From sequence record KP869102: a stretch of 64,000 bases of DNA. One strand, given 5' to 3'. A program made the translations under genes and the position numbers. Positions 52,794 to 64,000 of this stretch are shown piece by piece (the first letter of the stretch is position 1; each line of letters opens with the position of its first letter). The stretch comes from Escherichia coli O157 typing phage 4. The notes beneath the pieces are model-generated. The model was not told where the DNA came from. It worked only from the letters and a program-made list of their open reading frames with translations, and searched no databases.

Positions 52794-52893
52794 NNNNNNN
52801 NNNNNNNNNNNNNNNNNNNNNNNNNNNNNNNNNNNNNNNNNNNNNNNNNNNNNNNNNNNNNNNNNNNNNNNNNNNNNNNNNNNNNNNNNNNNN
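52794..52893. other. assembly gap (run of N)
   Basis: 100 consecutive N. Confidence 0.99.
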
Positions 52894-52944
52894 TTAGTGG
52901 CGGGAAGTTTTCCCGCCTGTGTTTTTAATTATACTTATTGAGAT

Positions 52945-53205
52945 TTACTTGTCAACACTATTTTTTAAATTATTGTGGCGCAAAATGTTTAAAATCTCTT
53001 CAACGTCATCAACACGGCGGCAATTTTTAAACGCTACCAATTGCCCCATGATTTTAATCACTGGGCGGCCTTGCCAGTGCCCCTGGAGAAAGCGCGCCTT
53101 GACTTTATCAGTGGAACTATCACGCCACCAAACGGCCTTGTTATTGCAGTAGTAAAAATTATTCAGGACAATATCAACTTTATCAAAATTTTTTAATTTA
53201 CGCAT
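52945..53205 (-). CDS. hypothetical protein
   Basis: 86-aa minus-strand ORF. Confidence 0.4.
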   Translation of the reverse strand: MRKLKNFDKVDIVLNNFYYCNNKAVWWRDSSTDKVKARFLQGHWQGRPVIKIMGQLVAFKNCRRVDDVEEILNILRHNNLKNSVDK

Positions 53206-53413
53206 AGTGTTTACTCCTTCCTTCTTGCTTTGATGTGGTTAGTATATCCGGACTATTCCAAGGTGTCAAGCTTTAAATAAAATCACTGTCAATGATATTT
53301 TTAACACCATAAAACGGCCCTGGGTGATGTTTTCAGGCTAAGAAAGGGGATTGCATAGGTAGGGGCTTTTGTGGCGTTTGTGGGGCCAACCAGGGGCGCT
53401 ATTCGTAGGATAG

Positions 53414-53442
53414 AAATAAAAAGCCCCGCACAATGGCGGGGC
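53414..53442 (-). terminator. rho-independent terminator
   Basis: On minus strand GCCCCGC-CATTGT-GCGGGGC followed by TTTTTATTT. Confidence 0.55.
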
Positions 53443-53531
53443 GTTGGTTGTTATTTGTCTTTATGGCGGTATCGTTCCGCTTGTCGTTCACGTTCCAAAA
53501 GTAGGCCCGGCAATTTACGATCATAATGATT

Positions 53532-53633
53532 CCNNNNNNNNNNNNNNNNNNNNNNNNNNNNNNNNNNNNNNNNNNNNNNNNNNNNNNNNNNNNNNNNNNN
53601 NNNNNNNNNNNNNNNNNNNNNNNNNNNNNNNNN
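53532..53633. other. assembly gap (run of N)
   Basis: About 100 consecutive N. Confidence 0.99.
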
Positions 53634-53949
53634 TGGCCTGAATCGCCCGGATACGGCGTTTTATAACCTCCTGATCCGTGCAATCGTATCCCCAAAAGTC
53701 TACAATTTTCGCGCCGCCAGCTTTTAAGCGGTATAATGTTTCTTGCATTTTGTAAGCTGGGATCGGTCGCGGTGTTACCTGGTCGCCTTTTTCATCCTTG
53801 TACTTGATTATGTAGTCCTCGTTGTCGTTGAATACCCAAAAAGGGTACTCTGTAAGGGCGTTGCTTTCTTTTTCGTTTTTAGATTGGATCTTGTTTACAA
53901 TTAAAGCCGTAGCAATAGCGCCAATAATAAAACTAGCCCCGCTGATCAT
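53634..53949 (-). CDS. hypothetical protein with N-terminal TM helix, partial (runs into gap)
   Basis: Minus ORF from ATG ~53949; 3-prime end lost in N run. Confidence 0.35.
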
Positions 53950-54024
53950 GTTACTTTCTCCTTTCATTGTGTTGATAAACTATCTTTATAGATGGCCCTG
54001 TTACCAGGACCACCGAAAAAATAA

Positions 54025-54270
54025 CTATTTCACAATGCCTACAAAACAGATCCCGCCTTCACCTATATAGGCAATATCGGTAATTTTATAATTTGTCAAG
54101 ATCCGCGTGTTCAGATCATTAATAAAATCGGTCATCGCGTTGGTGTAGTTGTCTTCCGTGTCTAAGGCATAATCCCAGGTGTAAACCTTTTTACGTCCGA
54201 AGCCTTTTACCATGATACGGGCGCTTTTGGTGTTGGTAGGGGCATAATATTTGGTGATTAGTGCTGCCAT
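54025..54270 (-). CDS. hypothetical protein
   Basis: 81 aa, AGGAG RBS. Confidence 0.4.
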   Translation of the reverse strand: MAALITKYYAPTNTKSARIMVKGFGRKKVYTWDYALDTEDNYTNAMTDFINDLNTRILTNYKITDIAYIGEGGICFVGIVK

Positions 54271-54359
54271 GGTTTTAACTCCTCTGAATTAGTTCAGTGT
54301 TAACAGTATAAAGTTTACTTTATTGATGGCCCTGAAGTCAAGGCCATCTAAAAATAAAC

Positions 54360-54701
54360 TTACTCGTTTTCTTCCAGCTCCGCAAGCTCTTCTTTTGCTT
54401 CTTCTAACTCTGTCTGTAGTTCCTGGTATTCTTCATCGTCCTCAATATCCAGGCTGTCGATGTAGTCGCTAAATCCGCAGCGGTAAGCGATAGGATCTAG
54501 CTCCTTGAGGATACGCGACGGAAGAAAAGAAATGTTTCCGATCATAATTTCGCCGTAGATCTCGTCTAACCATTCATCATAGTTTTCGTCGTACTTGTCC
54601 TCGTCGATTTCAAAGTTATCGATCTTGTTCTCAAGGTCTGCGATCTGTTTTTTCAGCGCGGCGATCTGCATAGCTTTTTCTGCGGCGGTCATAGTAGTCA
54701 T
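54360..54701 (-). CDS. hypothetical acidic coiled-coil protein
   Basis: 113 aa, AAGGAG RBS. Confidence 0.45.
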   Translation of the reverse strand: MTTMTAAEKAMQIAALKKQIADLENKIDNFEIDEDKYDENYDEWLDEIYGEIMIGNISFLPSRILKELDPIAYRCGFSDYIDSLDIEDDEEYQELQTELEEAKEELAELEENE

Positions 54702-54980
54702 GGTGTTTTCTCCTTTTGTGTGCTCTGGGAAGTTTTCCCGTTTACGTGTTTAAGTATAGCGATCTAAGTTAGTTTGTCAATTAAAAATTTAAGAAAAATT
54801 TTGCAAAACTGTTAGCGCTACTCATTAACATTTGCGCCAGGATGTAACCAATGATGCAAACGATAATAGTTACCTTTGTGTGCTGGCGTGTAGTACTCAT
54901 CTTTAAGCCCCCCTTTCCGCTCAACTGTGGTTAGTTTACTTTATTGATGGCCCTGGAGTCAAGGCCATCTAAAAATAAAC

Positions 54981-55376
54981 TCAGTACGTTTTCAGTACTT
55001 TCCCGTCCAACCTGTCTAACTGAATCTCAATAGCTGCAGAAAACCTATTGTAAACCACATCGCCCAAGGAGTCCAGCCAATCTATAACGTTATACACCTG
55101 CTCTTTATTCTTGCAAGTCCGGATCCGTTTCATTACGTAAGACGGATCAATATTAGTACTCCCGTTGTTGTGGTCATGCGCCTGGCCTGCTGCACTGGTT
55201 ATAGATTTTACAACCACCTGAAAGGGCTTTAAGGTGCCTTTTGCGTTCATCTCACGCGCTTTTGCGGCGCGGTTGTTATATGTTACACAACGGCGGCAAA
55301 TGTTGAATAAATGCATGTCAATAATTTTTTCATCGTTTGCCAGTTCGTTCATGATGCGGCGTACGTTCTTATTCAT
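54981..55376 (-). CDS. hypothetical protein
   Basis: 131 aa, AGAGGA RBS. Confidence 0.45.
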   Translation of the reverse strand: MNKNVRRIMNELANDEKIIDMHLFNICRRCVTYNNRAAKAREMNAKGTLKPFQVVVKSITSAAGQAHDHNNGSTNIDPSYVMKRIRTCKNKEQVYNVIDWLDSLGDVVYNRFSAAIEIQLDRLDGKVLKTY

Positions 55377-55460
55377 AGCTTTTCCTCTGTGTTGGCGGGA
55401 TGTTTCCCGCCTTTTGTGTCTAGTTTACTTGAATTTTGCAGCGTGTCAATAATTTTTTTT

Positions 55461-55859
55461 TTATTCGTGGGCACATGTTACAATGTGCTTTTTATAGCCC
55501 AGGTGGGCAGCAAGTGCCGCCAAAAACTCATCTTCATAGATCCAGCCGTTGGCAGTGATCCCCATAGCATTTAATGCGCTCTCAAGTGCTGCGTTAGCTT
55601 TATCATAACCGTGACCGCTCGCCTTGCCGCCAGTATAACCGTACTTATTGTTCTTGTTGTCGTGTATCCAAAAAACGCAGTAGTTAGTGTTACCGCTGGC
55701 GGCGGCATAGTACCGGATCTCCGCTACTTCGTGCAAATTATTATCATCGTCCAGGCCAACCAGATTATAAGCCTTGTAAAATCCACGATCACGGCGGCAG
55801 TTCTTGACATCAGAAAAAGAGAAGTCGGCATTGTCAAAATTAAAGGTTGTGGTTTTCAT
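55461..55859 (-). CDS. hypothetical protein
   Basis: 132-aa ORF. Confidence 0.45.
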   Translation of the reverse strand: MKTTTFNFDNADFSFSDVKNCRRDRGFYKAYNLVGLDDDNNLHEVAEIRYYAAASGNTNYCVFWIHDNKNNKYGYTGGKASGHGYDKANAALESALNAMGITANGWIYEDEFLAALAAHLGYKKHIVTCAHE

Positions 55860-55923
55860 GATTTTATCCTCTTAGTGTCTTTTGTGATTTCAGTATATTT
55901 TGTGTCGGGGCGTATGTCAATAC

Positions 55924-56121
55924 TTATTTTTTATTAAACCAGTGATTGATCTGACCTTTTGTCAGGGCGCAACGATTAAGCTGTTGCAGGGTATAGCTAT
56001 GACCGCGACGAAATTTATAAAGGCCTTGCCCGTTGTTGATGGTTACATCCACCAGGCAAACCACTTGATCGGTGACCACCTGGCGAGTGTTGCGACGTAC
56101 TTTGATTCCGTATGCGTTCAT
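55924..56121 (-). CDS. hypothetical basic protein
   Basis: 65-aa ORF. Confidence 0.35.
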   Translation of the reverse strand: MNAYGIKVRRNTRQVVTDQVVCLVDVTINNGQGLYKFRRGHSYTLQQLNRCALTKGQINHWFNKK

Positions 56122-56209
56122 GATTTTTTATCCTCTCTGTTAATTAGTGTGGTGTTGTTCACCTTGCGAGGATAAGAATAACAAGAACTGTCCGAGCTGT
56201 CAACCATTA

Positions 56210-56362
56210 GTTAAAATTATTTTTGCCCCTGCCAGGTTAACCATCATTTTTTCGTACTCTTCTTTATGTTCCAACGCTCCCGCCATAGCCTTTTCAACCA
56301 GGGCGATAGCCTCAGCGTCATTAATAGCTACATTTTCCAGGGGGATCATATTACCTTTCATT
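56210..56362 (-). CDS. small hypothetical protein (~50 aa)
   Basis: Minus ORF MKGNMIPLENVAINDAEAIALVEK... with AAGGGGAGG RBS; below ORF-track length cutoff. Confidence 0.3.
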
Positions 56363-56544
56363 TTTGTACCTCCCCTTCAATTGTTACCTATCCTATAGCA
56401 TAGGCCCACCAGGTTTACAAGCCTTCATTCTCTCCTGCCTGGTCAGTTAGGTCCTGCCAGGCTGGCCCCGCCAGGTTGCAGCGGTTAGCGCATCAGGTTA
56501 GAAAAATTTTTTGAAAAGTGTTGACAGCGGCCCCGCCAGGTGGC
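56231..56544. repeat. iteron-like array of CYGCCAGGT motifs (about 7 copies)
   Basis: cctgccaggtt, cccaccaggtt, cctgcctggtc, cctgccaggct, ccccgccaggtt, catcaggtt, ccccgccaggtg read directly. Confidence 0.55.
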
Positions 56545-56894
56545 ACAATATACCTATCGAAAGGACGGCAGGCACCGGTGACGGGGGAGGCAACCACCGG
56601 GGATGGACGCTGCATAAAATGAGAACGGTTATCATTATCATTTAAAAATTTATGCAAAAAATCCTTGCTTTCTTTGTCCTGTGTGATACTATAATAACAA
56701 GCCGGGGCAACAGGGGCCGGGAGACAATCACCGGGCCTGCCCGTTATTCTGCAAACGAGAATGATTATCATTCAAAATTCTAAATGAGAACTCCTCGCAT
56801 TTAATAAATTTAATTAGCATGCTAATTACCCTCCGTAACAATTTCCTATAAAACAGTATCCCATAAAATATTTCCATATAGAAATTTTAAAAAT

Positions 56895-57069
56895 CCATTT
56901 CTGAAAACGAAAAATCGATTTCGTCCCCAAAAATTTCAGGTCGAGATCCGGAACGATTTCCAGAAAATCCGATTTAGAAAACGAAAAACAGATCGAGTAC
57001 TGAGAAATTTATCGAGAAAAATTTTCAGAAAATTCAATCTTTGAAACGAAAAACAGATCGAGTACCTGG
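56895..57069. repeat. AT-rich direct repeats (unit ending GAAAACGAAAAACAGATCGAGTAC), two full copies and one partial
   Basis: Near-identical ~44-bp copies at ~56957-57000 and ~57023-57066, partial copy ~56895-56925. Confidence 0.6.
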
Positions 57070-57377
57070 AAAGCTGCACTGCAACTTCAAGATAGTGGTT
57101 AGATTATTACCATAAAAGGTCAAGGGTAAGTGGAGGAAGTTCTAGTAGAAGGATGTGAGCATGTGTGGGAAATCTATAATGGTGGCCTGGAATATGGTGC
57201 AAACGATAGGATGAGTTATTCAGCTTGTCGCGCCTACTCTGAAAAATCCATTTTAGTTTTCGATCCATTTTCTGATTTTCTAAGAATTTTAAAATATCCA
57301 GCCCGGTGAAATATCAAAAGGAGGAAATCCATTTTAGAAATCCCCCTTATACTTGATATGCCAGGAATTTTCAAGTA

Positions 57378-57707
57378 TCAGTTGTCTTTGTTTTTAGGTT
57401 TGTACATGCGCAGAGGTATGGTCTTTGTAACATTCCATTTCCTCAACCCTTCCCAGCTCCAGTTGTGGGCGTGGTATCCGGTTATGCATGCACTACTGGA
57501 GTGATCGTAAGCATAAGAGAACGCTAAGCGCACCAGGTGGGGCCAGTCCTTCCATGGTTGTGGACCGTAAGCTTTTCTCCAACACCGACACAAACTAAAT
57601 GTCTCAAGGATAGGAAGGATAACAAACCCATACACTGTCACCAAAATAGTCAGTGCAATGATTGTCAGGAACACATACCCTGCAGTTGAAATGATGATCT
57701 CTGTCAT
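57378..57707 (-). CDS. membrane protein
   Basis: N-terminal TM helices; 109 aa. Confidence 0.4.
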   Translation of the reverse strand: MTEIIISTAGYVFLTIIALTILVTVYGFVILPILETFSLCRCWRKAYGPQPWKDWPHLVRLAFSYAYDHSSSACITGYHAHNWSWEGLRKWNVTKTIPLRMYKPKNKDN

Positions 57708-57907
57708 TTGTCGTCCCCTTTCTTACGGATATAGATGTGAGAACCTGCCTGTATATAAATTTCTCGACCATCTTCTGCGAAGATGTGGAATACACGGTCA
57801 CCTTCGTACTCAATACGAGATATCTTCATAATGGTCTTTCCACCTGGGATACGGATCTCGTCCCCCACAGCGATGTTCCATGCAGATTTAAGCTTAAACA
57901 TCTGCAC
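57704..57907 (-). CDS. hypothetical protein
   Basis: 67 aa, overlapping stop/start. Confidence 0.4.
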   Translation of the reverse strand: MQMFKLKSAWNIAVGDEIRIPGGKTIMKISRIEYEGDRVFHIFAEDGREIYIQAGSHIYIRKKGDDK

Positions 57908-58139
57908 CCTCCTTTGGGAACTTGAACTCTGGCATAGCCATATACGCTACAACAGGGTTGTGATCAAAGTAGAACTGACCGTTAATTATCCCGGTTTTAC
58001 TCACATAGTTACCAGATCCTGCAAGAACAACCTCGCAAGCTCCGAAATCTACATTGCCATCCTCATCAGCCATGGCTACGATATACTTTCCTAGAGGCAT
58101 GTTTTTAACGCCGTCTACAAATGTCCACCCTTTGTTCAT
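57894..58139 (-). CDS. hypothetical protein
   Basis: 81 aa. Confidence 0.4.
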   Translation of the reverse strand: MNKGWTFVDGVKNMPLGKYIVAMADEDGNVDFGACEVVLAGSGNYVSKTGIINGQFYFDHNPVVAYMAMPEFKFPKEGADV

Positions 58140-58159
58140 ACTTTATCTCCTGCACTTTC

Positions 58160-58492
58160 TTAAGGTAACCAGTAAACAATCTCGCCTTTCAGCTTCATGT
58201 CGTTTCCAACATAAATTTCCCAGCCATCCATCTTAGCAACTGTAGGCCCAAAGTCATCCGCACCCCTTACCTCTTTCCAGGCTCCGTAGTCAGGTTGCCA
58301 GATATAGAATCCACCTTCTTTGTCCCATGCTCCGTACACTACGTTTAACAGGTTTCCCATTGCAACAATGGTGGGCCGTGGGAATAATACATCTACAGAT
58401 GCGCCACAATTTCGGGTATCTTTTAAGTTGCAATCCCAAAAGATGTCTGCCAGTGTGGCGGCGATAGCTTTACGTCTTTCCAATGTTACCAT
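58160..58492 (-). CDS. hypothetical protein
   Basis: 110 aa. Confidence 0.4.
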   Translation of the reverse strand: MVTLERRKAIAATLADIFWDCNLKDTRNCGASVDVLFPRPTIVAMGNLLNVVYGAWDKEGGFYIWQPDYGAWKEVRGADDFGPTVAKMDGWEIYVGNDMKLKGEIVYWLP

Positions 58493-58502
58493 GGCACGAT
58501 AC

Positions 58503-58694
58503 TCACTTGTTGTTAATAAGTTCTAAAACTTTCTGTCTTACTTTGTCAAGGTCTGTTGATTCAAAAACTGTGCGATATCCCCAACTTTGCCCATAGGAGT
58601 GACTGCAATCTCCGTAGCACCATTGCTCAATTTGATAGTATTCAAGGAAGGGGTGCTGTCTAACTATGATGCCATCCCGGTTAAAAATTACCAT
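58503..58694 (-). CDS. hypothetical protein
   Basis: 63 aa. Confidence 0.35.
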   Translation of the reverse strand: MVIFNRDGIIVRQHPFLEYYQIEQWCYGDCSHSYGQSWGYRTVFESTDLDKVRQKVLELINNK

Positions 58695-58757
58695 AATACG
58701 TCGCTCTCTGTTAGTCTGTGCGTATATTATACACTGTAGTTTTCAGATGTCAATCTT

Positions 58758-59009
58758 TTACAGGTTACTCCAGTATACTCGGCATTTACATTTCGGGCAA
58801 TGAGGCTCTTTTATGTAATAACCATCAGTCTTTGGAACACTTTTTGGTGCAGTTTTAAGATTGTACCGAGTAAAACACCGGAAGCAGGTTACCTCTCCAA
58901 CCTGTTGATCGTTTATCCACTCGCCAGAGTAAAGCTCTCTCTTGTTTCTCATAATTCTCTCCCAAATCCTCTGCAATCTTATACCAAAATCTCCAGCCAG
59001 AAAGCACAC
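58758..59009 (-). CDS. zinc-ribbon protein
   Basis: CFRCFTRYNL...HCPKCKC Cys pairs. Confidence 0.4.
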   Translation of the reverse strand: MCFLAGDFGIRLQRIWERIMRNKRELYSGEWINDQQVGEVTCFRCFTRYNLKTAPKSVPKTDGYYIKEPHCPKCKCRVYWSNL

Positions 59010-59202
59010 GGGAACACTTTGATGATTGAATCTTTACCTGGTTCAGCAGTTCTTTTTCCGTAGGGTAGGTAGAAATACCCTCCTGCAGATTCGAACACAG
59101 CCCCTTCGGTTGTATCTATCACAGCCAGAATTAAGATTTTAGTCTCCATAGTGCTCCCTCTCTCAATCGTTGTGGTGACTATACCATCTCAAAAACCCGC
59201 TG

Positions 59203-59760
59203 TCAACACTTTTTGTACTCCACCACGATAATATTCATATCAAAAGTGGCAAGGTTAATAACGTCCTCTACGTGCTCCCACTTCAAACCGCCTATGCCGC
59301 ACCCGATCTTAGGGATGTAGAATGGTAAAGTCGATCCACTGAATACCTCATTGACTAGCTCAAAGCCTTTCAGGATTGAGAAATATTCAGCATTAGGTCC
59401 TGGGTAGAACTGAGTATACAGATTGATTCCGTAGACAATACCTCTCGGAGATAAGTGCTCCCATCGGGAGAACGCACCCAGTTTACTTAGGCAACCGTGT
59501 CTGGTCTCTTTGTCAGCTGCCAATGCTTGAGGGAACTCACGGGCAATCTGTTTTGCTATCCCCTTGCCCATTGTGTGGAAGCAGTTACAACCGTGGATCA
59601 GGTGACCAGCACCGCTCTTAAAAAGGGAGATTAAATCTCCCTCTACAGTATCAATAATCACGGTATGCCAGCTCCTCTTCCGCAATTTCAAAAAACTCAT
59701 CCCAACCTTGTGGCATATTTGAGTTGCCGAAGTGGCTTTCATAGTAAAGGTTCTCACCAC
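59203..59760 (-). CDS. macro-domain protein (ADP-ribose binding/processing)
   Basis: HLIHGCNCFHTMGKGIAKQIAREFP resembles the macro-domain core; true start probably an internal ATG. Confidence 0.55.
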   Translation of the reverse strand: MVRTFTMKATSATQICHKVGMSFLKLRKRSWHTVIIDTVEGDLISLFKSGAGHLIHGCNCFHTMGKGIAKQIAREFPQALAADKETRHGCLSKLGAFSRWEHLSPRGIVYGINLYTQFYPGPNAEYFSILKGFELVNEVFSGSTLPFYIPKIGCGIGGLKWEHVEDVINLATFDMNIIVVEYKKC

Positions 59761-60076
59761 TTGGGAGATAGAAATCTGTTACCTCGTAGAATCCACAATC
59801 GTCGCACTCGCCTTCTTCAAACTTGGCCTCAACCTTAATACCGAGGAAGGTGAAAAGTTTATGAATATCTTCAGTTTCGAACTCCCAGTGAATGTTGTTT
59901 TCCGCATCGGTGTAGAACTGGATCAGCAGACCATTGTCCAGTTTACCAAAATACTCTGTGAAGTAACTTCCTTCCCAGAAATCTCTATGACAAATAATAT
60001 CCATGCGTTTGCCCATAATAATGGTGTGAGCGTTTTGGGCATCGTCGCGAATCAGTTTTGGCATTTCATAGATCAT
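59651..60076 (-). CDS. hypothetical acidic protein
   Basis: 141-aa ORF; 3-prime end overlaps macro-domain ORF. Confidence 0.4.
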   Translation of the reverse strand: MIYEMPKLIRDDAQNAHTIIMGKRMDIICHRDFWEGSYFTEYFGKLDNGLLIQFYTDAENNIHWEFETEDIHKLFTFLGIKVEAKFEEGECDDCGFYEVTDFYLPSGENLYYESHFGNSNMPQGWDEFFEIAEEELAYRDY

Positions 60077-60144
60077 CTTAGTTCTCCGGGTTCAACAGGT
60101 GGTGGTGCTACAGGAAGATCATAAAACATAGCTATCACAGTCTC

Positions 60145-60342
60145 TTACACAGGAATTGCTTCAAACAGGCCGTTATCTATACCGTCCTTCAGATAGAGAT
60201 TATATTCTATATCGGTATCTGTATAAAGGGCAGCATCCAGCATTCTATCTGTGAGTCCATCCATTGGGTGGAGAAACCACCACCCACGCCAGTCAAAGTA
60301 ACAGCCTGGTGCATCTTCTCTTACACGGATTCGATAAATCAT
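60145..60342 (-). CDS. hypothetical protein (gene A; second copy starts at 61334)
   Basis: 65 aa; identical N-terminus seen again at 61285-61334. Confidence 0.4.
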   Translation of the reverse strand: MIYRIRVREDAPGCYFDWRGWWFLHPMDGLTDRMLDAALYTDTDIEYNLYLKDGIDNGLFEAIPV

Positions 60343-60438
60343 GGGCAGTGGCCTCCTGTTAGTTATACATCCCAGTTTTCTTCGTTCATCGCGTCCTCCC
60401 GTTATATGAAGTTATAATTGCACACCTTTCAACCTGTG

Positions 60439-60855
60439 TCAACAGAAAACTTCAACAAATTCTTCCACAGTTTTAATGTCGTGGGAAAAAGGTTTACGGC
60501 TATAACGGGCAATAGCACTATCAACCACCGCCCGGTACTCCAAATCTTCAGAATATTTCATGAAGCATTGCAGCGTCTCTGGGCAGATAGCTAAATAGCT
60601 CCACCACCCTTCTTCAGATTGGTAGTCGAATCCCATACTCTCCAACCATGAAGCATATACTCCTGCACCCTCAAGCCAGTGAGTATTTTCATCCAGAAAC
60701 TTGTTAATAGACATGTGAGCTTCTAAGCATTTATCTAGCTCTTTTCCGTTAACCAGCCACGCACTGACCGTGGCGCATCCAAGGTCTACAGATTGAGTTG
60801 ACAGGTTGTATTGGTCATAGTTCTCAGGTTTAACAATGATATCTTCTAATGTCAT
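60439..60855 (-). CDS. hypothetical protein (gene B, copy 1)
   Basis: 138 aa; ~98 percent identical to 61431..61847. Confidence 0.45.
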   Translation of the reverse strand: MTLEDIIVKPENYDQYNLSTQSVDLGCATVSAWLVNGKELDKCLEAHMSINKFLDENTHWLEGAGVYASWLESMGFDYQSEEGWWSYLAICPETLQCFMKYSEDLEYRAVVDSAIARYSRKPFSHDIKTVEEFVEVFC

Positions 60856-60874
60856 TTTTCAGATCTCCTTATAC

Positions 60875-60903
60875 AAAAATGCCCCACCCTTTCGGGCAGG
60901 GCT
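60875..60903 (-). terminator. rho-independent terminator (second copy at ~61867-61895)
   Basis: On minus strand GCCCTGCCC-GAAA-GGGTGGGGC followed by ATTTTT. Confidence 0.65.
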
Positions 60904-60917
60904 ATGTTAACTAATTG

Positions 60918-61184
60918 TTAAAAAGGGATGTCATCATCAAAGGAGTACTGTGCTGGATTCTGATCCATTGGGTCATCTTCCTCATCATTTACAGGAGGAG
61001 CGTCTACAGTGTTTTGCTGTGGAGCTGCTTCCTGTTTGGTAGCCTGAGGTTCTTGATGGTCAGTTGACCCAGCACCGTTCTTGATCCAATCGTACAACGG
61101 CTCAGCCAGATTAGTCAAGACATCTTTTGCTTCTGCAGTAATTGCCGCTGCAAAATCATCAACTTTCGTTTTCTTGTCAATACG
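60918..61184 (-). CDS. SSB-like protein, C-terminal fragment ending DDDIPF (5-prime part lost in gap)
   Basis: Gly/Pro/Gln-rich linker then acidic tip ...PAQYSFDDDIPF-stop. Confidence 0.4.
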   Translation of the reverse strand, partial: RIDKKTKVDDFAAAITAEAKDVLTNLAEPLYDWIKNGAGSTDHQEPQATKQEAAPQQNTVDAPPVNDEEDDPMDQNPAQYSFDDDIPF

Positions 61185-61284
61185 NNNNNNNNNNNNNNNN
61201 NNNNNNNNNNNNNNNNNNNNNNNNNNNNNNNNNNNNNNNNNNNNNNNNNNNNNNNNNNNNNNNNNNNNNNNNNNNNNNNNNNNN
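61185..61284. other. assembly gap (run of N)
   Basis: 100 consecutive N. Confidence 0.99.
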
Positions 61285-61430
61285 TCAAAGTAACAGCCTG
61301 GTGCATCTTCTCTTACACGGATTCGATAAATCATGGGCAGTGGCCTCCTGTTAGTTATACATCCCAGTTTTCTTCGTTCATCGCGTCCTCCCGTTCTATG
61401 AAGTTATAATTGCACACCTTTCCACCTGTG

Positions 61431-61847
61431 TCAACAGAAAACTTCAACAAACTCTTCCACAGCTTTAATGTCGTGGGAAAAAGGTTTACGGCTATAACGG
61501 GCAATAGCACTATCAACCACCGCCCGGTACTCCAAATCTTCAGAATATTTCATGAAGCATTGCAGCGTCTCTGGGCAGATAGCTAAATAGCTCCACCACC
61601 CCTCTTCAGATTGGTAGTCGAATCCCATACTCTCCAACCATGAAGCATATACTCCTGCACCCTCTAGCCAGTGGGTATTTTCATCAAGAAATTTATTCAC
61701 CGACATGTGTGCTTCCAGGCACTCGTCAAGCTCTTTTCCGTTAACCAGCCATGCACTGACTGTGGCGCATCCGAGGTCTACAGATTGAGTTGACAGGTTG
61801 TATTGGTCATAGTTCTCAGGTTTAACAATGATATCTTCTAATGTCAT
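61431..61847 (-). CDS. hypothetical protein (gene B, copy 2)
   Basis: 138 aa; differs from copy 1 at a few residues. Confidence 0.45.
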   Translation of the reverse strand: MTLEDIIVKPENYDQYNLSTQSVDLGCATVSAWLVNGKELDECLEAHMSVNKFLDENTHWLEGAGVYASWLESMGFDYQSEEGWWSYLAICPETLQCFMKYSEDLEYRAVVDSAIARYSRKPFSHDIKAVEEFVEVFC

Positions 61848-61909
61848 TTTTCAGATCTCCTTATACAAAAATGCCCCACCCTTTCGGGCAGGGCTATGTC
61901 AGTTAGGTG

Positions 61910-62533
61910 CTAAAAGTATTCATAGAGGTATCCATCGGGAGCTGGAATTTTTTCATGAATGTAGTAATCAACACATATTCCGGTTTCTCTTCTACAAGAA
62001 TTGTGGGATACCCATTCTTTAAGAACGTTGCCATTCATGTCCAGCCTCCTTACATTTTTACACCGTCTACCGCTGGTGCTTCTATGCAACAGAATATCCT
62101 CCGTCTGCTTGTCTTTATTTTCTCCCCAGGTCGTTAAACGGATATTATCAAAAGAGTACCCTTTGAAATCATCTATCCTGTCACAAGAAGGCTTTTTCCT
62201 TTTGTCGTATCCGCTGGCTACCCACTGGTCATACAACTCTTTGTAACCGTTCAGGTATAGCCACTCCTTAAACTCTTTTTTGGTGTAAGTCGGAGGAGGG
62301 TGACCTCTTTGCTTGCTGTTGCACTTTTGAGCCTTGTACAACACGCGTATTACACCTTTTTCTGAAGAGTCGTGGGAAAACTGGTCAGCCTCCCTACTGG
62401 CCTTCTTACAACACTCTTTGCACTTATTAAGATGACCGTCAGACATCTTTGGGTGTTTGTAGAACTCGGAGAGGTTTTTCACCTCTCCGCACTTGATGCA
62501 TCTCTTACAATGCGTAGATTCTACTTTTGCCAT
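61910..62533 (-). CDS. putative HNH-type homing endonuclease
   Basis: N-terminal Cys cluster [13 protein letters not shown]...CKEC, SFDNIRL...GEN segment; present only in copy 2 of the duplicated locus. Confidence 0.5.
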
Positions 62534-63027
62534 ATTGCAGACCTACCGGAGCGAAAGGAATGTCATCACAGAAGTCATACTGTGCTGGATTCTGATCCAT
62601 CGGGTCATCTTCCTCATCATTTACAGGAGGAGCGTCTACAGTGTTTTGCTGTGGAGCTGTTTCCTGTTTGGCAGCCTGAGGTTCTTGATGGTCAGTTGAC
62701 CCAGCACCGTTCTTGATCCAATCGTACAACGGCTCAGCCAGATTAGTCAAGACATCTTTTGCTTCTGCAGTAATTGCCGCTGCAAAATCATCAACTTTCG
62801 TTTTCTTGTCAATACGGCGACAAGCGTTCAACACCGCATTACCGACACTGGCACCTACTTCATCTTCAGTTCGGTTGGTGGCCTGAGCATACTCTTTCTT
62901 AAGCTCAATGGTGACTACGTGCAGTGTTTTAGCCACGCCCAGTGGGTCGTCTACCTTAAACCCGCGATCCAGGATGATCTGCAACGCATTGATGCTATGC
63001 CCCGTTTCCACACCGATAGGGTCGTAA
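62505..63027 (-). CDS. SSB-like protein (copy 2), partial, with C-terminal extension past DDIPF
   Basis: Same linker and acidic tail as 60918 copy but frame continues ...[23 protein letters not shown]; N-terminus lost at gap. Confidence 0.4.
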
Positions 63028-63127
63028 NNNNNNNNNNNNNNNNNNNNNNNNNNNNNNNNNNNNNNNNNNNNNNNNNNNNNNNNNNNNNNNNNNNNNNNNN
63101 NNNNNNNNNNNNNNNNNNNNNNNNNNN
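63028..63127. other. assembly gap (run of N)
   Basis: 100 consecutive N. Confidence 0.99.
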
Positions 63128-63416
63128 TTACGACCCTATCGGTGTGGAAACGGGGCATAGCATCAATGCGTTGCAGATCATCCTGGATCGCGGGTTTAAG
63201 GTAGACGACCCACTGGGCGTGGCTAAAACACTGCACGTAGTCACCATTGAGCTTAAGAAAGAGTATGCTCAAGCCACCAACCGAACTGAAGATGAAGTAG
63301 GTGCCAGTGTCGGTAATGCGGTGTTGAACGCTTGTCGCCGTATTGACAAGAAAACGAAAGTTGATGATTTTGCAGCGGCAATTACTGCAGAAGCAAAAGA
63401 TGTCTTGACTAATCTG
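63128..63416. repeat. inverted duplicate of 62738..63027 (probable assembly artefact)
   Basis: Reverse complement of 63128-63416 matches 62738-63027 with one mismatch; arms flank an N gap. Confidence 0.7.
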
Positions 63417-63516
63417 NNNNNNNNNNNNNNNNNNNNNNNNNNNNNNNNNNNNNNNNNNNNNNNNNNNNNNNNNNNNNNNNNNNNNNNNNNNNNNNNNNNN
63501 NNNNNNNNNNNNNNNN
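63417..63516. other. assembly gap (run of N)
   Basis: 100 consecutive N. Confidence 0.99.
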
Positions 63517-63585
63517 GAAATGGGCAAAAAAGATGCAGAGGACAGCTCAATTCGGGAGTCATATCTACTACAAGGAGCGCAATAA

Positions 63586-64000
63586 ATGATTGTAAACAGT
63601 AATGAAACTAAAGCAGTACTAACCGGAAATATGGAGGTCACCAGGGGCTCAATTTCTCTGAACAAAGAGACTTTTGGGCTAATCATTAAAGGGATTTACG
63701 AAGATAAGGTGCTGGCAAGCTGCCGTGAACCAATCTTCAATGCTGTGGACTCCCATGTTGAGTCTGGACGGGGTGATGTACCGATCATCATTCACTCTCC
63801 TACAGACCTTGAACCATACTTCTTTGTGCAGGACGTTGGATTGGGCATGTCGGAAGAGATGGTCCGCAACACTTTCATGAACCTCGGGGAGTCAACCAAG
63901 CGCAACAGCAACGCTCTGGTAGGTAATAAAGGTGTAGGTTCAAAGGCCCCGTTCAGCATGGTGGACACTTTCGATGTGATCAGTGTGCACAACGGTGTTG
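63586..64000 (+). CDS. GHKL-type ATPase (Hsp90/MutL/GyrB-like ATP-binding fold), partial at window end
   Basis: AAGGAG RBS; N-box EPIFNAVDSH, G1 box QDVGLGM, G2 box GNKGVGSKAPF; no stop before window end. Confidence 0.5.
   Translation, partial: MIVNSNETKAVLTGNMEVTRGSISLNKETFGLIIKGIYEDKVLASCREPIFNAVDSHVESGRGDVPIIIHSPTDLEPYFFVQDVGLGMSEEMVRNTFMNLGESTKRNSNALVGNKGVGSKAPFSMVDTFDVISVHNGV

Follow-up and report, generated by a model that had tools for sequence, protein, structure and literature searches.

The apparent duplication in the window, i.e., the 64,000-nucleotide stretch of Escherichia coli O157 typing phage 4 (KP869102) that was analysed here, very likely consists of two alleles of one locus of an rV5-like coliphage, put together from mixed material. 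We are even more confident of one part of this explanation, namely that an assembly artefact and an allelic polymorphism are jointly responsible, while it appears rather likely that the gene distinguishing the two alleles, which encodes a 207-residue nuclease, functions, or once functioned, as a homing endonuclease at the site of an SSB-like gene. According to this explanation, the sample would have contained at least two haplotypes of the phage, indistinguishable from JES2013 elsewhere in the window and differing in a patch of about 0.85 kb; the graph assembler would have put out the alternative branches as separate contigs, which the 100-N spacers then joined. The allele at the end of contig c3 would be the empty one, in which the SSB-like gene ends in ...DDDIPF-stop and is followed by the terminator, and the allele of contig c4 would carry the nuclease between the SSB-like gene and the terminator, its SSB-like gene retaining a 15-residue tail.

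The repeats and the contig ends

The two direct repeats proposed for this region were borne out by alignment (Table 1). The left repeat pairs 60293-60907 with 61285-61899 (615 nt, ungapped, 23 mismatches), and the right repeat pairs 60931-61184 with 62563-62816 (254 nt, 9 mismatches). Chance cannot account for 615 nt matching at 96%. The initial annotation had put the identity at about 98%, a figure that has to be lowered to 96.3% over the 615 nt; identity reaches 99% in the initial 300 nt, and the short interval 60673-60781 contains a cluster of 18 of the 23 mismatches. The gene content had been read correctly, in that the SSB-like gene of copy 1 is followed by the terminator, with 15 nt between its stop and the terminator stem, and that the 207-aa ORF lies between the same two elements in copy 2 only. 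The first 50 nt of the 65-aa gene recur at 61285-61334, where the second copy of this gene is cut by the contig end. The SSB-like gene itself also differs between the copies, a fact that had been overlooked. The 138-aa protein of copy 2, looked up by exact sequence, matched no record, because of a T-to-A change, and an exact 33-mer spanning two c4-specific SNPs had no match in genome_contigs, viral_contigs or metagenome_contigs. Contig-end error was considered as the source of the four c4-specific SNPs (61396-61463) and rejected, as three of them recur in other relatives, e.g., L013.

Table 1. Contigs of the window, and genes and terminators of the two copies of the locus.
Feature	Position	Strand	Remarks
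Contig c1	1-52793		100% identical to Escherichia phage JES2013 (Vequintavirus)
Contig c2	52894-53533		100% identical to JES2013
Contig c3	53634-61184	.	Tail is the endonuclease-minus, BP9-like allele (60610-61040)
65-aa gene	60145-60342	-	JES2013 ORF196 homologue, PHROG 9903
138-aa gene, copy 1	60439-60855	-	ORF197 homologue, PHROG 8967
Intrinsic terminator, copy 1	60881-60902	-	9-bp stem with 7 GC pairs, then ATTTTTGTAT
SSB-like gene, 3' end, short form	60918-61184	-	JES2013 ORF199 homologue; 'empty' allele; stop 60918-60920
Spacer c3/c4	61185-61284	.	100 N
Contig c4	61285-63027	.	Endonuclease-plus allele of the same locus as the c3 end
138-aa gene, copy 2	61431-61847	-	3 amino-acid differences from copy 1
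Intrinsic terminator, copy 2	61873-61894	-	Identical to copy 1
207-aa free-standing nuclease gene	61910-62533	-	Copy 2 only
15-codon tail and stop, SSB-like long form	62505-62552	-	
SSB-like gene upstream of tail (c4)	62553-63027	-	Cut by contig end
Contig c5	63128-63416	.	289 nt; 100% JES2013
Contig c6	63517-64000		100% identical to JES2013; carries rIIA

The window is made of six contigs (c1-c6) spaced by five runs of 100 N. Copy 2 starts, on its left, with the very base that follows the N gap, and copy 1 stops, on its right, with the very base that precedes it; c4 is an allelic overlap with the final 892 nt of c3. Neither this coincidence of edges and contig ends, nor the five N gaps, nor the third redundant piece at 63128-63416 had been recognized in the initial annotation. 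Since the rIIA piece, c6, is inverted and about 18 kb distant in JES2013, the order of the contigs in the window is not the genome order. Up to 60609, c3 is identical to JES2013 except for one additional T in the T-run at 55462, and c4 differs from JES2013 119255-120997 by 5 mismatches.

The geometry of the contig ends is regular. Contig c5 is the reverse complement of 62739-63027 with a single SNP difference (62883/63272), and since this SNP is exactly central, with 144 nt on either side, c5 is a single-SNP assembly bubble. The right end of c3 likewise falls 144 nt past its last SNP (61040), and that of c4 falls 144 nt past SNP 62883; on its left side, c4 ends 111 nt, and not 144 nt, from the first SNP of this contig. 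The 144-nt spacing from SNP to end in c3, c4 and c5 is as expected of graph assembly from a mixed sample. A de Bruijn K of 145 accounts for three of the contig ends, for the c5 length and for the c3/c5 overlap of 78 nt, and fails for the left end of c4 (111 nt) and the 143-nt hole between c2 and c3.

These observations bear directly on the proposal of a genuine tandem duplication, in which one genome would carry the 65-aa gene, 138-aa gene, terminator and SSB-like 3' end twice, with the endonuclease gained by copy 2. It is true that the window shows the copies side by side and co-oriented, and that the junction is hidden by the N gap, so that the window alone is compatible with such an arrangement. 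Nonetheless, we regard it as exceedingly improbable: both repeat boundaries are contig ends and the junction itself is 100 N; the SSB-like gene and the 65-aa gene would both be truncated by this junction; an inverted, redundant c5 and exact 144-nt SNP distances would be unexpected; and the copies differ by 34 substitutions, against 100% identity of the other 60 kb to JES2013. Moreover, two copies were found in none of the listed relatives, JES2013 included. The locus was counted at 120 places in 119 records and at 118 places in 116, one each in the listed records, and the gene order occurs once in the annotations of JES2013 and BP9. The description as a duplicated locus is not supported. The contig-end edges, the 144-nt SNP spacing, c5 and the single-copy state of all listed complete relatives uphold the other suggestion of the initial annotation, namely that population variants with and without the endonuclease were joined over the N gap.

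Allele comparison with JES2013, BP9 and other relatives

Over 60610-61040, c3 differs from JES2013 at 34 positions, of which 32 are BP9-like (31 in another 34-row tally). The c3 allele is without the nuclease gene, and c4 is JES2013-like over the same stretch and has the gene. Both contigs are mosaics: c3 has JES2013 alleles at 60404-60471 and BP9-like alleles afterwards, while c4 shows the reverse, and the switch falls across a stretch of 138 identical nucleotides; these mosaics may be due to real phasing or to path switching by the assembler.

Such a pattern could also be produced by two distinct phages, JES2013 and a BP9-like one, that were co-cultured or co-sampled and differ genome-wide, in which case c3 and c4 would be chimeric paths through short shared stretches, and neither a near-isogenic pair nor a recent conversion event would be implied. 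The exchange of haplotypes over the 138-nt identical stretch agrees with this, as does the closest similarity of the endonuclease-minus part of c3 to BP9 (99.2% over 59200-61185), and contigs of the second phage could be outside the 64-kb window. We nevertheless find two such phages improbable, since c1 (52.8 kb) and the initial 7 kb of c3 match JES2013 at 100% and without a break, and all records other than JES2013 are at most 96.3% identical over 53634-60290. In addition, BP9 differs at 10 sites in 60130-60214, and a second genome present at a depth sufficient for assembly should have broken or bubbled the contigs, as the single SNP did in c5. Two haplotypes on a JES2013-like background are preferred.

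Among the relatives, the nuclease gene was found in 51 of about 117 Vequintavirus records (~44%), always between the homologues of ORF199 and ORF197, such that close, collinear relatives differ by its presence or absence at one fixed site. Four states of the locus were seen: empty, a 192-aa variant, the 207-aa variant, and decayed footprints, with decayed or lost copies in L024 and L025. In the GenBank relatives, the 207-aa variant makes up ~27%, the 192-aa variant ~17% and the empty state ~56%; a search of IMG/VR returned two related loci only. The possibility that the SNP block at 60673-60781 is a co-conversion tract linked to the endonuclease was rejected at the population level. The association is broken by L012, where the 207-aa gene is combined with the alternative block, and by L004, where the block is combined with the 192-aa variant; the block is thus not endonuclease-linked.

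A PacI-like fold predicted for the 207-aa protein

The 207-aa protein is 100% identical to ORF198 of JES2013, annotated 'putative endonuclease VII', and it matched PHROG 1035 'endonuclease VII' at E = 4e-41; in GenBank, the gene already bears the annotations 'endonuclease VII' and 'putative homing endonuclease'. No Pfam family was matched even at E <= 10, nor any NCBIfam family, and a PDB sequence search returned a weak match to PacI alone (E 0.17). The AF2 model (pLDDT 92) had PacI as its top Foldseek match, with a probability of 1.00, and comprises a PacI-like domain that includes a zinc ribbon (CxxC...CxxC), followed by a small domain at the C-terminus. Judged by this model, the protein is a PacI-like nuclease with the beta-beta-alpha-metal fold of the HNH superfamily. 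The original designation 'HNH endonuclease' thus applies at the level of the fold only, and does not extend to a Pfam HNH match.

The residues C12, C15, C38, C41, R119, Y126 and N139 are invariant in 64 homologues, and D118 is conserved in at least 90% of them. In the motif S116-x-D118-R119-I-D, the canonical general-base His is absent; the Arg of this motif stands where HNH_3-type enzymes have His. By motif alone, D118, Y126 and N139, together with the four Cys, align with the D-R...G-Y...N of PacI. PacI is an active enzyme, in which Asp and Asn are metal ligands and Tyr replaces His as the general base (PMC4081073); these residues are named there without numbers, and the mapping is by motif only. 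Homologues of less than 60% identity occur beside other genes in 52 records (Vibrio, N4-like, Acinetobacter and other phages). At the same site, a 74%-identical nuclease is found in a clade in which the SSB-like gene is 76% identical, a parallel divergence that long vertical co-inheritance would fit equally well as recent homing.

The two ends of the SSB-like gene

The genes flanking the 207-aa ORF had no match in Pfam (E up to 10) or NCBIfam, including the SSB-like protein in Pfam. TIGR00621 aligned with the tail of this protein only (E = 0.24, 11.7 bits, cut-off 54). The protein does have an OB-fold ssDNA-binding domain, and the name 'SSB-like' can be kept on account of this match and of the acidic tip, although not as membership of a sequence family. 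Its C-terminus reads ...SFDDDIPF-stop in copy 1 (c3) and ...DFCDDIPF followed by 15 residues in copy 2 (c4). Thus, the short c3 allele presents DDDIPF with a free carboxylate, whereas 15 residues come after IPF in c4; in E. coli SSB, a single extra Gly abolished the binding of chi (PMC3045619). The long form and the nuclease ORF overlap by 29 nt (62505-62533), and the first 8-10 codons of the nuclease are overprinted on the tail.

In a set of 16 sequences, the C-terminus was [S/T/A/V]FDDDIPF-stop in the empty allele (6/6), EFDDSIPF-stop with the 192-aa variant (6/6), and DFCDDIPF plus the tail with the 207-aa variant (4/4). Allele-specific substitutions are clustered at two places, the 3'-terminal eight codons of the SSB-like gene and the 13 nt preceding the terminator, in perfect association with the allele in these 16 sequences; in other words, differences at the presumptive target site go with the endonuclease allele. 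The idea that the tail is a read-through into the endonuclease cassette, or its footprint, was rejected, because a terminator comes right after the tail in phi92, Mydo and a Salmonella phage, and because, read in the SSB frame, the substitutions are synonymous. Unexpectedly, the tail peptide is conserved, and under purifying selection, in distant phages without the endonuclease. The stop of the empty allele and its next 13 nt are homologous to the stop and 3' flank of the nuclease gene, and both ORFs end in TTT or TTC before the stop codon, which makes a microhomology deletion plausible. On this sequence evidence, the empty allele may have originated by deletion rather than being an un-invaded target.

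This homology, along with the shared ORF ends, is also what could be expected if the 207-aa gene were no longer mobile, i.e., if it were inherited vertically, as a nuclease that was retained or domesticated or as a relic without activity, its presence and absence resulting from deletions and ordinary recombination. The missing catalytic His and Pfam match, the equal divergence of the endonuclease and its neighbour between clades, and the deletion footprints in L024 and L025 point the same way. Overall, however, we consider loss of mobility unlikely. PacI, the closest structure, is active with Tyr as the general base (PMC4081073); the Asp, Tyr and Asn that align with it are conserved across the 64 homologues; the ORF is intact in 51 records; and the allele-specific substitutions are clustered exactly at the junction. 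An active homing endonuclease, present or past, is favored.

Comparison with known systems

A precedent for such an arrangement is segG of T4, a free-standing GIY-YIG homing endonuclease gene in the interval of genes 32 and 59, the product of which cuts gene 32, the T4 SSB gene (PMC2988022). In both cases, a free-standing nuclease gene adjoins the gene of a phage ssDNA-binding protein, with co-directional neighbors, and is polymorphic among related phages, with flanking markers that are co-converted or differ with the gene. They are distinct in that SegG is of the GIY-YIG type and the 207-aa nuclease is PacI-like of the HNH superfamily, and in that the latter gene is at the 3' end of the SSB-like gene, with the 29-nt overlap; furthermore, SegG has been demonstrated to cleave and to home, whereas both are only inferred for the 207-aa nuclease. 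Another precedent is mobE, a free-standing HNH homing endonuclease gene in the nrdA/nrdB interval of T4 (PMC2790892, PMC2988022). Like mobE and the promoter-less seg and mob cassettes, the gene studied here belongs to an intergenic nuclease of the HNH superfamily within a polycistronic unit upstream of a terminator, and like mobE it is present or absent among close relatives; unlike mobE, it has no detectable sequence relationship (no Pfam HNH match) and lacks the general-base His. No promoter-like match was found directly upstream of it, and it is thus probably co-transcribed with the SSB-like gene.

PacI itself (PDB 3ldy/3m7k) is a homodimeric type IIP restriction enzyme of 142 aa in the context of a cognate methyltransferase, whereas the nuclease described here has 207 aa with an additional C-terminal domain, and is encoded in a phage genome, at a locus devoid of a partner methyltransferase. 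I-HmuI of Bacillus phage SPO1 (PDB 1u3e) is an intron-encoded HNH homing (nicking) endonuclease with the canonical HNH residues, in contrast to the free-standing, PacI-like case presented here. As in surveys of other phages, near-identical genomes differ in a short patch centered on a nuclease gene. In the rV5 genome paper, a nuclease at the SSB-like site was not found, the terminase intron endonuclease being the only one mentioned (PMC3606486).

Implications

In a mixed infection, the nuclease would be predicted to cut the endonuclease-less allele near the conserved 3' end that codes for DDDIPF, and the break would then be repaired from the endonuclease-plus genome, such that the gene is copied along with flanking markers. 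The endonuclease-plus alleles would escape cutting by virtue of the clustered substitutions in their last eight codons. Homing thus predicts cutting of the empty allele only, near ...TTTGATGATGACATCCCTTTTTAA.

It may also be speculated, although we judge it improbable, that the polymorphism goes beyond the carriage of a selfish gene and couples the endonuclease to a functional dimorphism of the SSB-like protein. The endonuclease-plus allele would then retain the ancestral C-terminus, its tail (AP[VI]GLQYG...) masking the DDDIPF tip, and the endonuclease-free rV5-type allele would be a truncation with exactly the same ending as E. coli SSB, the product of which could therefore engage the SSB partners of the host. 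If so, the coexistence of the alleles, in the sample and in the GenBank relatives, might be due to homing and, in addition, to selection on the function of the SSB. For specialists, one modest point of interest may be that the SSB-like protein of this phage group has a conserved tail after a host-like DDDIPF tip, lost exactly in the endonuclease-free rV5-type allele.

In a practical sense, multi-contig records can yield 'duplications' that are allelic bubbles, and the N runs and the geometry of the contig ends should be looked at first. Biologically, the finding is an ordinary one, as polymorphisms of this kind are nothing unusual in large phages; it adds another case of a free-standing endonuclease gene that is present in some copies of a large coliphage genome and absent from others. 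Both alleles, however, may share the JES2013 backbone in one sample, and if confirmed by reads, this would be a natural snapshot of gene conversion.

Structure of the repeated locus

Alignment confirmed that the window contains repeated segments, in the form of two matching blocks. The first (60293-60907 versus 61285-61899) is ungapped, with 23 mismatches in 615 nt; its identity is thus 96.3% (99% over the first 300 nt), below the ~98% of the initial annotation. The second (60931-61184 versus 62563-62816) spans 254 nt with 9 mismatches. In copy 2, the blocks are separated by an insert of ~636 nt that is absent from copy 1. All genes at the locus lie on the minus strand.

The window has five N runs, each of exactly 100 N, and is thus composed of six contigs (c1 to c6), which were mapped on the complete genome of Escherichia phage JES2013 (KC690136, Vequintavirus).

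Contigs, spacers and features of the repeated locus
Feature	Window	Strand	JES2013	Remarks
c1	1-52793		50145-102937	100.000% identity over 52,793 nt
N spacer	52794-52893
c2	52894-53533		111814-112453	100%
N spacer	53534-53633
c3	53634-61184		112597-119885, then jump to 120524-120786
N spacer	61185-61284
c4	61285-63027		119255-120997	5 mismatches
N spacer	63028-63127
c5	63128-63416		120709-120997, reversed	100%
N spacer	63417-63516
c6	63517-64000		1569-2052, reversed	100%; rIIA
Intrinsic terminator, copy 1	60902-60881	minus		same sequence as in copy 2
Intrinsic terminator, copy 2	61894-61873	minus		same sequence as in copy 1
207-aa ORF	61910-62533	minus		inside copy 2 insert
Tail of SSB-like gene	62505-62552	minus		also L018, L019, L022, L024, L027 (phi92), L028 (Mydo), L029
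Copy 1, gene sense				SSB-like gene, terminator, 138-aa gene, 65-aa gene
Copy 2, gene sense				SSB-like gene, 207-aa gene, terminator, 138-aa gene, first 50 nt of 65-aa gene

In JES2013, c6 is inverted and ~18 kb away, and 8.9 kb (102938-111813) are absent from the window between c1 and c2 (N gap 52793/52894), which means that the spacers link independent contigs and do not represent gaps of measured size in one molecule. A further 143 nt (112454-112596) are absent at the c2/c3 gap (53533/53634), and repeats or more polymorphic sites are possible causes of both absences. Contigs c1, c2, c5 and c6 are 100.000% identical to KC690136; the window has the appearance of another draft assembly, made from the JES2013 stock or a sibling. 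The region of small early genes contains three copies (53978-54026, 54312-54360 and 54933-54981) of a 49-nt element bearing a GC-rich hairpin (GATGGCCCTG...CAAGGCCATC) and three tandem-like 62-nt units (56872-57072), all of which may be repeated regulatory elements.

The apparent duplication is an overlap of allelic contigs

The first base of c4 is also the first of copy 2, and the repeat in copy 1 runs to the very end of c3; what looks like a duplication is therefore an overlap between c4 and the terminal 892 nt of c3. At its end, c3 extends exactly 144 nt beyond 61040, the last site at which it differs from c4; c4 likewise extends exactly 144 nt beyond a SNP at 62883; and c5 is the other allele of that SNP with exactly 144 nt on either side, 289 nt in total. 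Such a geometry arises at polymorphic sites in a de Bruijn or string graph when K (or read length) is 145, and it also accounts for the 78-nt overlap of c3 and c5. Among the relatives, 119 records (120 places) and 116 records (118 places) were retrieved, with one place in every record listed, and the annotations of JES2013 and of BP9 (PP488543), an endonuclease-less relative, contain the gene order of the locus once.

A tandem duplication within one genome, the first of two readings offered by the initial annotation, is thus highly improbable, since its junction would need to truncate two genes precisely beneath the Ns and since it would leave c5 without explanation. The second reading, namely endonuclease-plus and endonuclease-minus population variants joined over the N gap, is supported by the contig ends, the single-copy relatives and the BP9-like and JES2013-like alleles described below. 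The apparent duplication is an artefact of concatenated allelic contigs, and the biology beneath it is an ordinary endonuclease-gene polymorphism.

Two probable haplotypes on a JES2013 backbone

From 53634 to 60609, c3 is identical to JES2013 except for one T, an extra residue in a T9/T10 homopolymer at 55462 that is the sole difference in the first 7 kb of the contig and probably reflects sequencing or assembly. In 60610-61040, the insert is absent and 34 sites differ from JES2013, 32 of which match BP9. Over the corresponding stretch c4 is JES2013-like and has the insert; it differs from JES2013 at four further positions in 61396-61463, three of which are natural variants, as they are found in other relatives. 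At 62883, the BP9 allele is in c4 and the JES2013 allele in c5. These allele patterns make each of c3 and c4 a mosaic of both haplotypes, with the switch across a 138-nt identical stretch, and the mosaics reflect either real phasing or path switching. The published JES2013 genome combines the c3 allele at 60404-60471, the c4 allele with the insert at 60610-61040, and the c5 allele at 62883.

The backbone is specifically that of JES2013, since the next-best GenBank record reaches only 96.3% identity over 53634-60290. A second, distinct phage in the sample, with its other contigs beyond the window, is unlikely, because no break interrupts c1 or the first 7 kb of c3, whereas a single SNP sufficed to yield c5. 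For the same reason we favor a pair of near-isogenic haplotypes, distinguished by a patch of ~0.85 kb (60404 to ~61251 in copy-1 coordinates) and by the insert.

The 207-aa nuclease has a PacI-like fold

The 207-aa protein of c4 is 100% identical to JES2013 ORF198, annotated as ‘putative endonuclease VII’, and its copies in BASEL-collection records are labelled ‘putative homing endonuclease’. Pfam, even at E = 10, and NCBIfam gave no match to it, but PHROG 1035, ‘endonuclease VII’, did (E = 4e-41). Precomputed Pfam matches in some homologues are to PF22083 and PF07453, the I-HmuI NUMOD-like and NUMOD1 families. A structure model built from 64 homologues (pLDDT 92) had PacI as its top Foldseek match (probability 1.00), and a 24-residue motif aligned with PacI VDRSDSFEGYSPQNARLACFICN. 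Thus, the earlier designation ‘HNH endonuclease’ holds at the level of superfamily and fold, but not for the classical HNH sequence families. Among the 64 homologues, C12, C15, C38, C41, R119, Y126 and N139 are invariant, and D118 is kept in at least 90%; the canonical catalytic His is absent. PacI is an active HNH-superfamily enzyme in which Asp and Asn hold the metal and Tyr replaces the usual general-base His (PMC4081073), and the missing His is therefore no evidence of inactivity.

States of the locus among relatives

In GenBank, the nuclease gene is carried by ~51 of ~117 Vequintavirus records, 31 with the 207-aa form (at least 95% identical) and 20 with a 192-aa form (80-95% identical, with a different 5' end); homologues of less than 60% identity lie beside unrelated genes in 52 further records of Vibrio, N4-like, Acinetobacter and other phages. 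Separately, ~16-20 unannotated MG0656xx records named ‘Campylobacter phage’ (host Campylobacter jejuni) are, over this region, 95-98% identical to rV5-like coliphages; probably the names are wrong or the samples were mixed.

Comparison of 16 aligned sequences and further loci revealed four states. In the empty state, the SSB-like gene has 408 aa and ends in Y[S/T/A/V]FDDDIPF*. The 192-aa variant is preceded by ...YEFDDSIPF* (stop TGA) and an 8-nt spacer; at L004, L008-L010, L016 and L017 it was observed to be 90% identical, with a shorter zinc-ribbon region and a short-form SSB-like gene before it. With the 207-aa variant, the SSB-like gene has 423 aa, ends in ...YDFCDDIPF plus a 15-residue tail, and has its stop 29 nt within the nuclease ORF. 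The fourth state consists of footprints: locus L025 has DFCDDIPF*, the signature of the 207-aa allele, with a normal stop and no nuclease gene, while L024 keeps the tail and recognizable 5' and 3' remnants of a nuclease gene with an internal deletion and its ATG changed to ACG. Judged by these sequences, the two are decay stages of the nuclease element.

The SSB-like tail is conserved without the nuclease

The same tail, ...DFDDDIPFAPIGLQYGRNF[IL]HC[IF]* or a close variant, closes the homologous gene in phi92 (gp156), Proteus phage Mydo, a Salmonella phage, and contigs L018 and L019, where it is followed by a terminator instead of a nuclease gene. Its pattern, AP[VI]GLQY[GA]xxx[IVL][YH]x[LIF], is conserved between genera, even where the phage has no endonuclease gene at the site. 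Between JES2013 and L022, 16 of its 45 nt differ, giving 10 synonymous (including AGT/TCA Ser and AGA/CGC Arg) and 2 non-synonymous codon changes in the SSB frame, versus 1 and 9 in either other frame. Read-through of the SSB-like gene into the nuclease cassette, considered as the origin of the 15 extra codons, was rejected on both grounds. Conservation and synonymous bias indicate that the tail is translated and under purifying selection, and the first 8-10 nuclease codons, free to vary, are overprinted on it.

The long form of the SSB-like gene is probably ancestral, in which case the rV5-type ‘empty’ allele, from which the tail is absent, would encode a truncated SSB with the same end as E. 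coli SSB. Since one extra C-terminal Gly in the latter abolishes chi binding and impairs in vivo function (PMC3045619), the two alleles of the window may, by analogy, differ in the usability of the SSB tip. The conserved tail and its loss in the endonuclease-free allele appear to be undescribed.

Homing or vertical inheritance

No promoter-like match was found directly upstream of the nuclease gene, which precedes the terminator at which transcription of the SSB-like gene otherwise stops; the gene is therefore probably co-transcribed with the SSB-like gene, as are the promoter-less seg/mob cassettes of T4 with their neighbors (PMC2988022). Models for a mechanism are T4 SegG with gene 32 and MobE with nrdB (PMC2988022, PMC2790892). 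By analogy, the endonuclease-less allele would be cut close to the conserved DDDIPF-coding end, the endonuclease-plus genome would serve as template for break repair, and flanking markers would be co-converted; allele-specific substitutions in the last eight codons of the SSB-like gene would confer immunity. Near the junction (within ~30 nt), the association of substitutions with state is perfect; it is broken in the dense SNP block 60673-60781, L012 and L004 being recombinants. At the same position in L021, a contig with a 35%-identical SSB-like gene, a different nuclease-like ORF (2178-2492) overlaps the tail and shares with the 207-aa protein only the N-terminal zinc ribbon (57% over 49 aa).

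We lean towards a nuclease that acts, or once acted, as a homing endonuclease at this site. Two observations can be explained equally well by vertical inheritance and occasional loss. First, nuclease and neighbor have diverged equally between clades: in one clade the SSB-like gene is 76% identical and the nuclease gene, in the same position, 74% identical. Second, the stop of the empty allele, together with the 13 nt that follow, is homologous to the stop and 3' flank of the nuclease gene itself, pointing to a possible microhomology deletion.

Free-standing genes of the homing-endonuclease type, polymorphic between close phages and surrounded by local divergence, are well known (PMC2988022, PMC10448857, PMC8594841). 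The rV5 genome paper (PMC3606486) mentions only the terminase intron endonuclease, and no paper on the present site was found in open-access text. The interest of the locus rests on the possible coexistence of both alleles on the same backbone, and on the dimorphic C-terminus of the SSB-like protein.
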